A stretch of DNA of 60,350 nt from an uncultured Clostridia bacterium (GTDB lineage: Bacteria > Bacillota > Clostridia > TANB77 > CAG-508), in contig CANQDX010000004.1 in NCBI GenBank assembly GCA_947594065.1, positions 1 to 60,350 on the forward strand. Reading direction: 5' to 3'. This document shows positions 1 through 22,772 of the stretch, piece after piece (positions within the stretch are counted from its first letter, which is position 1; every line of letters starts with the position of its first letter). The notes under the pieces were generated by a model, which had not been told where the DNA came from, ran no database searches, and saw only the letters and a list, made by a program, of their open reading frames with translations. The position numbers were made by a program, and so were the translations under genes.

Positions 1-425
1 GGTTGCATTTGAAAAGAAACATACCTACCAGCTAATAGTGTTGCTAATTCACCAGATAGTAGATTACTATTGGAACCCGTTATAAAAATAGATACATTTT
101 TTGTTGCTTTAAATGAATTTATAGCTTTTTCCCAATTGACTACATTTTGAATCTCATCGAAAAATAAGTAATATTTTTCTTTTTTAGTCATTTGTTTTTT
201 GATATAGGAATTTAAATCCATATCGTTTTTGATAAATGACATATCTATATCTTCAAAATTAATATAAATAATTCTTTCTTCTGGTATACCTTTAGCCTTT
301 AATTCGTCTATAATCTGTTTTAGCAAAGTTGATTTTCCAGACCTTCGAATTCCTGTAATTACTTTTATTAAATCTTGATCATAAAACCCTCTTATTCTTT
401 TTAAGTATTCTTCTCTTTTTATCAT
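1..425 (-). CDS. AAA+ ATPase, AAA_14/DUF4143-type (N-terminal 141 codons; the rest lies beyond the window edge)
   Basis: Absent from the ORF track because it is open at the window edge. Minus-strand ATG at 425-423 with GGAGG 8 nt upstream (434-438). My translation MIKREEYLKRIRGFYDQDLIKVITGIRRSGKSTLLKQ...YYLFFDEIQNV shows a Walker A (GIRRSGKST) and a Walker B-like (LFFDE) motif typical of this family. Confidence 0.7.
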   Translation of the reverse strand, partial: MIKREEYLKRIRGFYDQDLIKVITGIRRSGKSTLLKQIIDELKAKGIPEERIIYINFEDIDMSFIKNDMDLNSYIKKQMTKKEKYYLFFDEIQNVVNWEKAINSFKATKNVSIFITGSNSNLLSGELATLLAGRYVSFQMQ

Positions 426-670
426 AAAGATATCCTCCTTGCTTTATTCTTATACCCATTATACTATTTCTTTATGAAAATGTCAAATTTTTACGATACA
501 CCGTAAAAAAATATAAAAAATTAAACTAATTTACGTTTAACCGTAATAATTAAAATTTTGTATCTATCCAACTTGAACATTACATTTATATATTTTTATT
601 CAATATATAATATTCTTTTTCAAATAAAAAAAATTATTCTGATAAATTGAATACCTTTACCATAAAAAAA

Positions 671-699
671 TTGACAAAGATGAAATGAATGTATATAAT
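671..699 (+). promoter_or_regulatory. consensus sigma-A-type promoter TTGACA-17-TATAAT
   Basis: TTGACA 671-676, 17-nt spacer, TATAAT 694-699. It lies about 30 nt upstream of RBS GAGGGAG (721-727) and ATG 733. Confidence 0.6.
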
Positions 700-732
700 A
701 AAGAAAAAAGAAAAACGAAAGAGGGAGTAGAA

Positions 733-2315
733 ATGTCCGAAAACCGTTGCGCTTGTAGAGAGAGAGAGAGAGAGAGAGAAGCAATTCTAAAGAAAAAATA
801 GTAGAAGAAAGATTAAAAAATAATAGAGTAAGAAATCAAAAAAGCGAAAAGGGAGCAATAGCCATATTTGTATTAGTAGCGCTCTTGTTTATGTCCGCTT
901 TTTTAATTTTGCTATTTGCAAGCAATGTAAACAAAGGAAAAGATGTGCAAGAACAATTTAACATAGTAAGCGAGATCTATGCAGGAGAAGGAGAGCAAGG
1001 AGCCTATGACCAAGCCTTTGGAGCATTAAGAAAAAAGAATAAAACAACATTAACAGCAGAAGTAGAAAATAGCGCAGCCCTACCATTAGAAAGAACTTTT
1101 GGAGGAAACATAGGCAATTACAGAATATATGGAAACAGTGTGCAAAACGGAACCCCATCTCCAACGAATCCAGTAGAAATACAAAGTGTAGGAGATAGAA
1201 CAAAAAATTTATTTAACCCTAATGACCCAAATGTTATAAAAACTAATTGTGAAATGCAAATAGATGGAAATAATGTAATAGAAAAGCCAAATGGAGATAA
1301 GCAAACAGCACTAATTTATCCTTTAAAATTAAAAAAGAATACCTATTATACAGTAAGTGGAAGCTTTCAAATGATTAATTCAGAAGAATATAACGGTGGT
1401 GGTAGTGTATGGGTAAGGACTTCTACTACTGGAGGATCGGATTACGTATTTGGAACACACCCAACATTTGAACACCCATTTTCATCTGAAAAAGTAATTA
1501 ATGATACATTTAATAGCGGCTCATATGAAACAGTGTACCTATGGCTATATTTTCAAATGGGAAATAATGGAGAGCAAAAAAATGGAAATTCCTATGGAAT
1601 ATATAAAAATATACAAATAGAAGAAGGAACGACGGCAACCGCTTATGAGCCTTATGGCTACAAAGTTCCAGTACAGGTAAGTGGAAAAAATTTATTTGAT
1701 ATAGACGGTGCAGTAAATGAAAATTTAATAAAAAACGATGATGGAACTTATACAATATGGAAAAATAAAGAAAACAATGATGGAAGATTATCAAAAAGAC
1801 TATCTATCAATATACCAGCTCAAACAAAAATAACAGTTTCCGTGGACATAGTGGATTATAATGGAACATACAGCTTACCATTTCAAATAGTTTGCTTTCC
1901 TAAAGATGGAGGAGAAGAATATATACAGTTTATGTTAAATGAAAAACATAAAACATATTCCTTTTCCAAAGAAATAACAAGAATGACGATATATCAAGAG
2001 TCTCGAATGCCAGTCGGAACTTATACAACCTTTAAAAATCTACAAATAGAACTAGGAGAAACAGCAACTGCTTATGAACCGTACCACGCCCCAGTAACCA
2101 CCAATATTTACTTAAACGAACCATTAAGGAAAGAAGGGGAAAAGGCAGACTATTTGGATTTCAAAACTGGAAAAGTAGTAAGATTAGATGGAACAACAGA
2201 AACCGTTGAACTACCAGAGCTACCAGCCTTCGAAGATTATTCAAAAATAGAAGTATTAACTACTGTTTCGCCATCCAAAATACAAGCAGAATATGAAGGG
2301 TATACAATAAAATAA
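733..2315 (+). CDS. membrane-anchored surface protein with two tail-fibre/CBM-like modules; reading frame interrupted in an (AG)11 tract (phase-OFF state)
   Basis: The track ORF 885..2315 begins at a TTG with no RBS, inside a TM segment. The same frame is open back to 759, through the AG repeat. ATG 733 has a strong RBS but sits in a frame that stops at TAG 799-801. Removing one AG unit fuses it to the long ORF. The ectodomain has two modules, each ending in [IL]QIExGxTATAYEPY. Confidence 0.6.
757..778 (+). repeat. (AG)11 dinucleotide microsatellite inside the 5' coding region
   Basis: Read directly: agagagagagagagagagagag, 11 perfect units. It is the only such tract in the window. Confidence 0.95.
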
Positions 2316-2320
2316 AGAAA

Positions 2321-2342
2321 AGGACACAAAAAAACGTGTCCT
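2321..2342 (+). terminator. hairpin after the surface-protein gene
   Basis: AGGACAC-aaaaaaac-GTGTCCT lies 6 nt after stop 2315. The trailing T-run is weak. Confidence 0.45.
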
Positions 2343-2417
2343 TAAAATATTTCCTAAAAAATAAAACAAATTTTCGTAAAAATATTGCAATTTGACAAAT
2401 AGTATAGTAAAATAGTA

Positions 2418-2726
2418 ATGAATGTAAAAGGAGATGAAGTTACATTGGAGAATAATAAATTAGAAACGATTTCTAATCTTTTTGAAGGAAAAGAAATAAG
2501 AAGTGTTTGGAATGCTGAAAAAGAAGAATACTTTTTTAGTGTGGTAGATGTCATTTATGCATTAACAGATAGTAACATTCCAAGAAATTATTGGAGTGAT
2601 TTAAAACGAAAATTAATTAATGAGGGAAGTGAGTTGCACGAAAAAATCGTGCAACTGAAATTAAAGTCAAGCAAAGACGGAAAAAACTATTTAACTGATA
2701 CATTAGATACCAAAGTAATTTATTAG
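2418..2726 (+). CDS. BRO-N/KilA-N-like (phage antirepressor-type) N-terminal domain protein, apparently truncated
   Basis: The 102-aa ORF contains EIRSVWNAEKEEYFFSVVDVIYALTDS...NYWSDLKRKL...KLKSSKDGKNYLTDTLDT, which matches my recollection of BRO-N domain proteins. Those normally continue for more than 100 aa; here the ORF stops just before trmL. Confidence 0.45.
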   Translation: MNVKGDEVTLENNKLETISNLFEGKEIRSVWNAEKEEYFFSVVDVIYALTDSNIPRNYWSDLKRKLINEGSELHEKIVQLKLKSSKDGKNYLTDTLDTKVIY

Positions 2727-2756
2727 AAAGTAAAATGTAAAGGAATGGTGTAAGAA

Positions 2757-3266
2757 ATGAAAATGAATATTGTAATGGTAGAACCAGAAATACCACAAAA
2801 TACAGGAAATGTGGCAAGAACTTGTGCAGCAACAGGTGCTAAACTGCATTTAGTAAAACCACTTGGTTTTCAAATAAACGATAAATATTTAAAGCGTGCA
2901 GGTTTAGACTATTGGGACAAATTAGAAATAGAAGAACACAAAAGCTTAGAAGCTTTTTTAAATAAGTATGCAGGTGCTTCTAAAAAGGTAAATTCTAATA
3001 TTTTCCTTGTAAGTACTAAATCACAGCATACATATTCTCAAATACAATATAATGAATATGATGAGGTATTTTTCTTATTTGGAAAAGAAACGAAAGGTCT
3101 TCCAGAATGGCTTATTCAAAATAATATCGAGCAGGCAATTCGTATTCCAATGAAAGAAGGATTACGTTCATTAAATTTATCCAATTCTGTGGCAATTGTA
3201 GTATATGAAGCATTAAGACAAAATAATTTTAACGATTTACAACAAATAAGCGATTATTTTAAATAA
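2757..3266 (+). CDS. trmL: tRNA (cytidine/uridine-2'-O)-methyltransferase TrmL (SpoU/TrmH superfamily)
   Basis: PEIPQNTGNVARTCAATGAKLHLVKPLGF...YLKRAGLDYW and a C-terminal LNLSNSVAIVVYEALRQ knot motif; about 165 aa. Confidence 0.85.
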   Translation: MKMNIVMVEPEIPQNTGNVARTCAATGAKLHLVKPLGFQINDKYLKRAGLDYWDKLEIEEHKSLEAFLNKYAGASKKVNSNIFLVSTKSQHTYSQIQYNEYDEVFFLFGKETKGLPEWLIQNNIEQAIRIPMKEGLRSLNLSNSVAIVVYEALRQNNFNDLQQISDYFK

Positions 3267-3413
3267 AAATAGTCGCTTTTTTTATCTTTTATAAACTCTT
3301 AAATATTTTTAAAATCAAGAGTTTTAATTCCCAAAATTAACAAAAAAAATCATATATCAATAATGATAATTATATAATATTATGGATAAAGCTAAATTTT
3401 AGGTATACATAAT

Positions 3414-22080: not shown

Positions 22081-22584
22081 CTAGTAATTGAAATTTCCTT
22101 TTACGCGGATTTTACGGCGATGTTTGTCGATAGTACCAGCACAATAAAAGTCACCTTTTACACGAATTTTGCGCTCATTTCTGTTGATATTACCACCACA
22201 GTAAAAGTCACTTCCTACACTGATAGCTCCGGTATCCATATTACCCTTGCAAGAAAGTTTACCTCCAACTGTAATACAACCAACATCCATACAGCCTTCA
22301 CAAAAAAGATTACCAGATACTTTTATATTGCCATAAATCTTCATATTGCCGTCACAAGCAAGATTACCGCCAATTGTGATTTTAGCCTTACGATATGGTT
22401 TTGGTAGAATATCGCCAATAACGCCGAGATTGTATCGCGTAAAAAGGTCTTCATCAAGGATTATGTTTCCCTTGATAACGACGTGTCCCCGGAAATCATC
22501 GAATGATTTGTTTAGCTTGCTTGCTAAAACATTTTTGTCAAAGCAAACAATTGACTTATTGGAATAGATTATCTCCCGTTCCAT
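22081..22584 (-). CDS. repeat beta-helix protein (bactofilin/polymer-forming-like), compositionally atypical
   Basis: Repeating units of about 17-20 aa: GGNLACDGNMKIYGNIKVSGNLFCEGCMDVGCITVGGKLSCKGNMDTGAISVGSDFYCGGNI. Start ATG 22584 after AAAGGAG. Visibly higher GC than neighbours, and two in-frame CGG codons. Confidence 0.5.
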   Translation of the reverse strand: MEREIIYSNKSIVCFDKNVLASKLNKSFDDFRGHVVIKGNIILDEDLFTRYNLGVIGDILPKPYRKAKITIGGNLACDGNMKIYGNIKVSGNLFCEGCMDVGCITVGGKLSCKGNMDTGAISVGSDFYCGGNINRNERKIRVKGDFYCAGTIDKHRRKIRVKGNFNY

Positions 22585-22772
22585 ACGAATACTCCTTTTC
22601 AATTATTACAAACTGTGTTTAACAGTATGTTAGCCTTATTATATCACATTTTTATGTTAATTGCAAACTTAAACTTTGAAACTGTATTTATTGTTGATAA
22701 ATTGCAATTTAACTGCATAAAATGGAAATTTTTGCATATAATGATTACAAAATGCATATAAGGAGAAAATGT

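Follow-up and report, generated by a model that had tools for sequence, protein, structure and literature searches.

The left end of a contig from an uncultured Clostridia bacterium raises the question of how a gene is expressed when its long reading frame and its only well-equipped start codon lie out of register. The sequence analysed here (the window) comprises positions 1 to 60,350, forward strand, of contig CANQDX010000004.1 in GenBank assembly GCA_947594065.1, and the gene in question is an open reading frame (ORF) of 518 sense codons for a putative surface protein. A perfect run of eleven AG dinucleotides, (AG)11, begins eight codons after ATG 733-735, a start codon preceded by a promoter and a ribosome-binding site, and stands between it and the greater part of the ORF. 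The original prediction proposed that this tract is an ON/OFF switch, currently OFF. On balance we lean towards this reading, i.e. translational phase variation by slipped-strand mispairing with the switch at present in the OFF position. The elements on which the argument turns are as follows:

671-699, + strand: sigma-70-type promoter TTGACA-17-TATAAT, scoring 12/12 in a promoter scan
721-727, + strand: Shine-Dalgarno (SD) sequence GAGGGAG with a 5-nucleotide (nt) spacer to ATG 733, read from the sequence
727-751, + strand: conserved leader motif GTAGAAATGTCCGAAAACCGTTGCG, which includes the start codon ATG 733-735, recognised by comparison with relatives
757-778, + strand: perfect (AG)11 simple sequence repeat (SSR), the proposed slipped-strand switch, read from the sequence
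759-2315, + strand: long ORF, 518 sense codons and a stop, for a charged tail, an anchor helix, a helical stalk and tandem beta-sandwich domains
780-851, + strand: 24-codon linker, open in the long-ORF frame only, which carries a degenerate GAAG (804-807) and ATT (812-814)
788-801, + strand: stops shutting both OFF frames, namely TAA 788-790 in a 9-unit allele and TAG 799-801 in the 11-unit allele
855-920, + strand: transmembrane anchor helix AIAIFVLVALLFMSAFLILLFA with the conserved motif KG[SA]I..IFVLV.LLFM..FL, lying inside the long N-terminal helix of the structural model
2320-2343, no strand assigned: 9-bp G+C-containing hairpin directly after the stop codon, terminator-like for the minus strand in a scan and probably with a role for the + strand gene

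Re-reading of the sequence and independent scans bore out what had been stated of the tract, the ribosome-binding site, the promoter, the stop in the ATG frame and the frame open from 759. In the 11-unit allele the frame of ATG 733 runs for 22 codons and ends at TAG 799-801; the frame of the long ORF is shut by TAG 756-758 and is then open from 759 to TAA 2313-2315. Given that the unit length is not a multiple of three, gain or loss of units shifts ATG 733 relative to the intact 518-codon ORF, and the claim that losing one AG or gaining two would bring the two into register held when the tract was rebuilt in silico: 10 units give a product of 526 amino acids (aa) and 13 units one of 528 aa, whereas 9, 11, 12 and 14 units give peptides of 17-24 aa. 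Alleles of 9 and 11 units thus represent two different wrong frames. Two further features lend support, namely that the 24-codon linker is open solely in the frame by which ATG 733 is joined to the ORF (the chance of a given linker frame staying open being about 0.08 in shuffles) and that the 518-codon ORF has remained intact in a window of 28% G+C. A scan of the 60 kb window found no other dinucleotide run of at least six units, and this, together with the variation in its length among near-identical genomes, argues that (AG)11 is not a product of chance or composition.

This variation was found on three metagenome contigs that carry other copies of the truncated product, L001, L002 and L003 (ENA ERZ27249451, ERZ27249440 and ERZ27249446), which share 99.94-99.98% identity with the window across 4.6-8.3 kb. 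The number of repeats, which the original prediction had singled out for comparison across related strains, indeed varies, being nine in L001 and eleven in L002, L003 and the window. Across the 8.3 kb shared by L001 and the window the only differences are a single mismatch and a single gap, the latter being the tract. A difference in tract length on such a near-identical background indicates that the tract is hypermutable, its rate of change being far above that of the DNA around it. Exact scans for the tract flank and the conserved leader motif gave no matches in collections of genomes, metagenomes and viral contigs, and look-ups with the neighbouring proteins (a 102-aa Bro-N-like fragment and TrmL) led back to the same three contigs and to one more, L011, which stops short of the tract. 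It could be argued that artefacts of assembly or sequencing account for both the broken frame and the difference between 9 and 11 units and that the real gene is in frame, as the contigs have only about 4x coverage and dinucleotide repeats stutter in libraries based on the polymerase chain reaction. We find this hardly credible: three independent assemblies have exactly 11 units, one has 9 and none has 10, the 22-bp tract is far shorter than a read, and stutter mostly yields a minority of reads differing by ±1 unit rather than a two-unit change in the consensus.

Under phase variation by slippage, transcription would start from the promoter at 671-699 and translation from ATG 733, and the ribosome would have to cross (AG)n to reach the only long ORF. 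When n ≡ 1 mod 3 (10 or 13) it would make the 526/528-aa protein, with a charged cytoplasmic tail, MSENRCAC(RE)n..., one membrane helix, a helical stalk and two to three extracellular beta-sandwich domains resembling carbohydrate-binding modules (CBMs). At any other n translation would end three to six codons past the tract and no anchored protein would result. Replication slippage would change n by at least one unit, far faster than point mutation, such that a population would keep generating ON and OFF cells; ON alleles would accordingly be expected to occur, their product to be made and exported, and switching to be reversible and under selection. Four of the six features that define SSR contingency loci are seen here, i.e. 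a repeat in frame in the 5' region, a unit that shifts the frame, the lack of a start that could bypass the repeat, and length polymorphism.

Where translation begins

The annotated product (P0001) has 474 aa and begins MSAFLILLFA, in the middle of a conserved hydrophobic helix. That its start, TTG 885, lies within a transmembrane segment and has no ribosome-binding site had been noted before, and alignment with 19 homologues confirms it: membrane-anchored relatives start with M-x(4-13)-K-G-[SA]-I-x-[IV]-F-V-L-V-x-L-L-F-M, and G40, F45, L50-M53 and L57 (numbered on the protein with its frame repaired) are invariant in 20 sequences. This alignment places the beginning of the anchor helix upstream of both TTG 885 and ATG 891, which fall within the hydrophobic segment and lack an SD sequence. 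As the ORF listing contains no in-frame ATG, GTG or TTG between 759 and 885, the evidence supports the conclusion that the conserved membrane helix cannot come from any start codon downstream of the tract. The relatives also indicate where the start used to be. In all ten that were compared, AGGAG and an ATG are found 18-42 nt ahead of the KG codon, and the homologous place in the window has GAAG (804-807) followed by an out-of-frame ATT (812-814), corresponding to changes of GGAG to GAAG in the SD and of ATG to ATT in the start. Judged by this comparison, the gene has evidently lost its own ancestral SD and start codon, and with no start available further downstream this leaves ATG 733 as the only plausible one. 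Gene callers that put the start inside the membrane helix thereby hide the putative switch from annotation.

At positions 790-801 the short ATG frame of the 11-unit allele ends with AAG AAA AAA TAG, from where a -1 slip would lead into the long-ORF frame at ATA 798. This brings up the alternative that the gene is leaky, with constitutively low expression of full-length or nearly full-length protein through such a ribosomal slip in the 11-unit allele or through rare initiation at ATA 864. The six-A run directly before the stop is what such a slip would call for, a -1 shift of the Lys-tRNA in the P-site would re-pair perfectly on entering the frame of ATA 798, and AAGGGAG (848-854) is well spaced, 9 nt ahead of ATA 864. 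However, as a slippery heptamer G AAA AAA is imperfect, and no stimulatory structure follows it, the leader RNA of the window folding no better than shuffled sequences (z = +0.7), which speaks against programmed -1 frameshifting. Moreover, A-runs abound in A-rich sequence, which makes a chance match of this kind easy to come by; for the 9-unit allele a +1 shift would be required, at TTC TAA, a site not known to be slippery; and ATA is a very poor initiator. Leaky expression therefore appears very improbable to us as an account of the locus.

A homologous leader with a (TA)n repeat

Additional evidence on ATG 733 comes from a Hadza-gut metagenome-assembled genome (MAG), L014, in which the family gene occurs a second time, flanked by an HD-domain gene and smc and preceded by a leader homologous to that of the window:

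L014 3711-4000: homologous leader, found also in L028-L034 (among them L030) and L019

This leader has a 12/12 promoter, about 70 nt that resemble the window leader and then (TA)14 at the position of the AG tract; the promoters of L014 and L030 are as perfect as that of the window and stand at the equivalent place. Global alignment of the two leaders with MAFFT was misleading and local alignment was used instead, which gave a score of 49 against 22±3.6 for shuffled sequences. L014 and the window share the motif GTAGAAATGTC...AAAACCGTTGCG and the same ATG, and with a 1-nt indel the motif precedes the (TA)n tract in L014 and in L028-L034, including L030. The sequence that follows (TA)n in L014 (CGCTAATCTAA) likewise stops both alternative frames. 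Beyond the tract, the L014 leader contains two strong hairpins (leader fold z = -9.9), the second being a terminator-like 17-bp stem with a T run, after which come the homologue's own SD and ATG; the (TA)n tract itself forms a long hairpin. The ORF from the conserved ATG, 60 aa long, reads through (TA)14 and stops (KIDEF-TAA) on the 5' arm of the terminator. L019, a Logan contig, starts within the (TA)n tract. Neither of the two downstream hairpins nor the terminator is present in the leader of the window.

Further (TA)n alleles were recovered by a protein search with the 60-aa leader ORF and by cluster look-ups. On flanks with 0 mismatches in 260 nt, the tract has 14 units in three further samples, 11 in two and 13 in one. 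The leader ORF is in frame at (TA)14 and (TA)11, and at (TA)13 it stops at CGC-TAA just past the tract. The apparent excess of in-frame alleles is biased and unusable as a test, as the hits were recovered through the ORF itself. In the diverged L030, a (TA)9 tract is combined with a flank that is 1 nt longer, such that the leader ORF is still in frame to KIDEF-TAA, and the first hairpin is kept by means of one double compensatory change. Thus, in two species this leader contains a hypermutable repeat of dinucleotides, composed of different units, and in every lineage an ORF begins at its ATG; this favours ATG 733 as a genuine start and a functional role for the tract. We had suspected that the 25-nt motif might be a non-coding DNA or RNA signal, given that the 1-nt indel alters the frame; this proved to be unneeded, with a background identity of 78-82% and the ATG heading an ORF everywhere. 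A permissive Rfam search with both leaders recovered only noise (e.g. miRNA models on the TA hairpin) and no known riboswitch or RNA family.

The structures of the L014-type leader suggest the further alternative that the repeats act on RNA or transcription, as elements of a 5' untranslated region (5'-UTR) that affect structure, stability or termination, rather than through the reading frame. In its favour are the long (TA)n hairpin within a highly structured leader and the terminator ahead of the gene, and SSR-dependent mechanisms in the 5'-UTR exist in Haemophilus influenzae (PMC12721329). Against it, the leader of the window is unstructured and devoid of both hairpins and the terminator, (AG)n is incapable of self-pairing, and the structural gene would still have no start codon. 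We hence regard an action of the AG tract at the RNA level as improbable.

The two leaders can be brought together, albeit tentatively and with considerable doubt, in the proposal of a portable leader-ORF cassette, composed of promoter, ATG and dinucleotide repeat and gated by the latter, for extra copies of the surface-protein gene, with two modes of working. In the L014-type, (TA)11/13/14 would set the frame of a 42-60-aa leader ORF, whose last five codons and stop constitute one arm, the 5' one, of an intrinsic terminator. The ribosome would be able to melt this terminator, and thus turn the downstream gene ON, at in-frame repeat numbers only, in effect slipped-strand phase variation via translation-coupled anti-termination. 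In the window version, the terminator would have been deleted and the same leader ORF joined directly to the structural gene, and the leader of the window indeed looks like the same cassette fused straight onto it. Of the two, the arrangement of leader ORF and terminator in the relatives, as its anatomy suggests, would be the more novel possibility, and it offers a testable link between repeat number, translation of a leader peptide and transcription termination.

The surface protein and its chromosomal slot

A search with the repaired protein recovered 932 relatives, the best 40% identical, all of them unnamed proteins from gut metagenomes and MAGs of uncultured Clostridia. No family in Pfam, PHROGs or NCBIfam matched the window protein significantly, and scans of 20 family members provided weak sequence support for a CBM-like protein, namely Pfam CBM_4_9 in 1/20 (E = 0.008) and the phage spike-fibre domain GTA_spike_fiber of NCBIfam in 9/20. 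The AlphaFold model (built with 35 sequences; mean predicted local distance difference test score, pLDDT, of 83) has a long N-terminal helix that combines tail, anchor and stalk, then two more helices and beta-rich domains. Foldseek searches of the PDB with the beta part matched, at E values from 6e-9 to 5e-6, CBM-like domains of the Vip3 and Cry1 (Cry1Ac) protoxins, GH101, SGBP-B of Bacteroides and a CBM22 tandem, and also a staphylococcal phage baseplate protein. The resemblance of the beta-sandwich domains to solved CBMs is in this way confirmed structurally, at the level of a model with a pLDDT of 83. The product is, on the strength of the model, probably a membrane-anchored, glycan-binding surface protein of an uncharacterised family.

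Two other identities were considered and set aside. The long N-terminal helix followed by beta domains merely resembles the layout of type IV pilins: PF07963 is found in none of 20 members, and though the G is present, position +5 is F and not E (KG/AIAIF). A distant relative of 690 aa, the JGI metagenome protein P0109, does have a true prepilin domain (PF07963, MNKKGFTLIELL) ahead of the same beta-sandwich modules, and some other relatives have pilin-like KGISLIVLV N-termini; in some lineages the ectodomain may accordingly be displayed on pilus-like anchors. A prophage tail-fibre gene was rejected in view of the fixed chromosomal slot of the orthologues. Distant homologues without the anchor helix have N-termini that by eye we take to be phage-like.

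The slot in question lies between the minus-strand operon for 2-oxoacid:ferredoxin oxidoreductase (POR) and a trmL-M23 peptidase-adhE segment, and was compared between window positions 1-3300 and L004, L006, L013, L015-L017 and L021. All nine related loci examined (P0026, P0017, P0008, P0025, L012, L013, L015, L016 and L017) sit in this slot, with one copy of the family in each. The orthologues in it are 35-40% identical in protein sequence and align in nucleotide patches only; the flanking genes are 78-82% identical to the window in nucleotide sequence. By these alignments the slot gene is hypervariable within a conserved place. Surface-exposed hypervariable proteins are the usual targets of phase variation, and a protein of this kind is a likely target of selection by phages, immunity or nutrient niche.

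In the strain of the window the slot has a more complex order: a paralogue (hereafter paralogue A), a minus-strand DUF4143 ATPase gene, the gene with the tract, a truncated Bro-N-like fragment and trmL. The first of these was located as follows:

L003 1130-2582: paralogue A, just left of window position 1, beyond the ATPase gene

Paralogue A occupies the ancestral position and has a conserved promoter and a start of its own (MRKVKNSIIKKEKGAIAIF), with no repeat. Of the beta-sandwich domains it is missing the first and has two copies of the second, and in two independent contigs, L002 and L003, it is split into overlapping ORFs of 219 and 290 aa. Between it and the gene with the tract dN/dS, the ratio of nonsynonymous to synonymous substitution, is about 0.39, which counts in favour of the switch. 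To the right of the latter gene, a 102-aa ORF (2418-2726, + strand) matches just the first third of the 274-position phrog_15286 (E = 1e-20, with a weak Bro-N match); this truncated fragment of a phage antirepressor-like gene hints at a past insertion or rearrangement beside the gene. A 26-nt imperfect inverted repeat (77% complementary), at 471-496 and 2374-2399, flanks the entire gene, each arm containing a TTGACA promoter-like hexamer for the outward-facing neighbour; the arms may be the edges of an inserted segment or a matter of chance.

This setting gives room to the main rival explanation, namely that the gene with the tract is a recently inactivated duplicate, a pseudogene to which a foreign leader became joined, which lost its own SD and ATG, and in which the AG tract is a neutral, drifting relic. 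We consider it unlikely on the whole, but several observations favour it or weigh against phase variation. The orthologues in other species and the adjoining paralogue have neither the tract nor the N-terminal extension and start downstream of where the tract lies, which the original prediction had named as an outcome that would count against a switch. This outcome is not decisive, since the corresponding SD and ATG have been mutated away in this gene; yet their mutation is also what a decaying duplicate would be expected to show. The tract is known from two alleles, 9 and 11 units, in four assemblies that probably derive from one study and, as mentioned, have low coverage; both alleles are OFF. 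A stepwise route from 11 to 9 units crosses the ON length of 10, which is absent from the four assemblies. The 526-aa ON-state query matched only the truncated 474-aa product in a collection of 5.8 billion proteins; P0001 is alone in its cluster, and the repaired N-terminus has no match in the collection. Paralogue A is broken in two, and the locus may hence simply be decaying, while the stand-alone ATPase gene and the truncated Bro-N-like fragment on the flanks suggest a rearranged region. Finally, the repeat of the L014-type stands about 150 nt upstream of the real start, outside the structural gene.

A dead duplicate is, however, at odds with 518 uninterrupted sense codons in a genome of 28% G+C, with a linker whose one open frame is precisely that connecting ATG 733 to the ORF, and with the retention of a perfect promoter and a strong SD. 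The diverged L030 keeps its leader ORF open, with a 1-nt change in the flank that offsets the difference in tract length, and if both paralogue A and the gene with the tract were dead, the strain would be without the gene that nine of nine related loci keep in the slot. The ON/OFF switch originally proposed thus gains from the lack of any start past the tract, from an ATG that heads a repeat-containing ORF in two related lineages and from the length polymorphism, while its ON side is represented by neither an allele in the four assemblies nor a protein in the collection; phase variation by slippage is the reading to which we continue to give some preference.

Two further repeats were noted in the window. 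An A9 homopolymer (55203-55211), the only other long simple repeat, lies in frame, as a lysine run, in a 368-aa ORF (54474-55580), which from its look we take to be an SbcD/Mre11-type nuclease. A tandem duplication of 57 bp (22097-22211; 79% identity) falls in a 173-aa minus-strand ORF (22081-22602) with repeated G-N-rich motifs and represents an internal protein repeat unrelated to the AG tract.

Comparison with known systems

If real, the switch would extend slipped-strand contingency loci to abundant gut anaerobes, whose surface they would help to shape; the target here would be a membrane-anchored, glycan-binding-like protein, which is hypervariable between species as it is. The nearest parallels in design are adhesin genes of Helicobacter pylori. 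In this species oipA and hopZ have dinucleotide repeats in the 5' coding region. For the adhesin SabA, slipped-strand mispairing at a dinucleotide repeat is reported to toggle the frame (PMC2715451), and the likeness is close, with a dinucleotide tract a few codons past the start of a surface gene. The CT repeat of H. pylori is moreover the complement of the AG in the window. There are also clear differences: the window comes from an uncultured gut Clostridia bacterium of Gram-positive type; its protein, with a single N-terminal anchor helix and CBM-like domains, is unrelated to the H. pylori beta-barrel; the repeat contributes to a cytoplasmic tail rather than to a signal peptide; and the locus is known from OFF alleles and sequence alone.

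Among low-G+C lineages two other systems are comparable. In Streptococcus pyogenes, a (CAAAA)n repeat stands right after the start codon of sclB, the translation of which depends on the number of repeats. Like the gene in the window, sclB encodes a Firmicutes surface protein and has a short repeat just past the ATG, but the unit is a pentanucleotide, the product an LPXTG cell-wall protein and the host a pathogen. Closer in the repeat itself is the Type III mod gene of Mycoplasma mycoides subsp. capri, for which (AG)12 and a sequenced state that ends at a premature stop are reported (PMC3498834). Unit and length are nearly the same as here, and the tract likewise lies inside a coding region in a Firmicutes-related lineage of low G+C; the target, however, is a DNA methyltransferase (a phasevarion) and not a surface protein, and the position of the tract differs.

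Within Clostridia, phase variation as known from Clostridioides difficile (cwpV, flgB, cmrRST and pdcB/pdcC) is attributed to DNA inversion (PMC11868660; PMC8890394). It resembles what is proposed for the window in the stochastic ON/OFF control of surface or signalling functions, but proceeds by site-specific inversion of a promoter or leader between inverted repeats. An invertible promoter of this type was considered for the window and rejected, given that positions 1-3400 contain only weak, A+T-rich, imperfect inverted repeats, none of which bracket 671-699. The original prediction knew of no well-documented repeat-driven case in Clostridia, in agreement with a 2025 review that treats phase variation in Clostridioides solely in terms of DNA inversion (PMC11868660), and our text searches of the literature found no repeat-driven example in Clostridia or uncultured gut commensals.

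The L014-type leader has its counterpart in attenuators of the type of E. coli pyrBI, in which translation of a leader ORF through an arm of the terminator prevents termination. In both, a short ORF ends on the terminator ahead of the gene, in L014 one that runs from the conserved ATG to the 5' arm of the 17-bp stem. In L014, which is known as an anatomy in sequence, the frame would be set by a hypermutable (TA)n and not by a metabolic signal; the window version no longer has the terminator, and its leader ORF is joined to the gene. Taken together, these comparisons indicate that the type of switch is itself a known one, while the lineage in which it would operate is unexpected and the protein family on which it would act is new.

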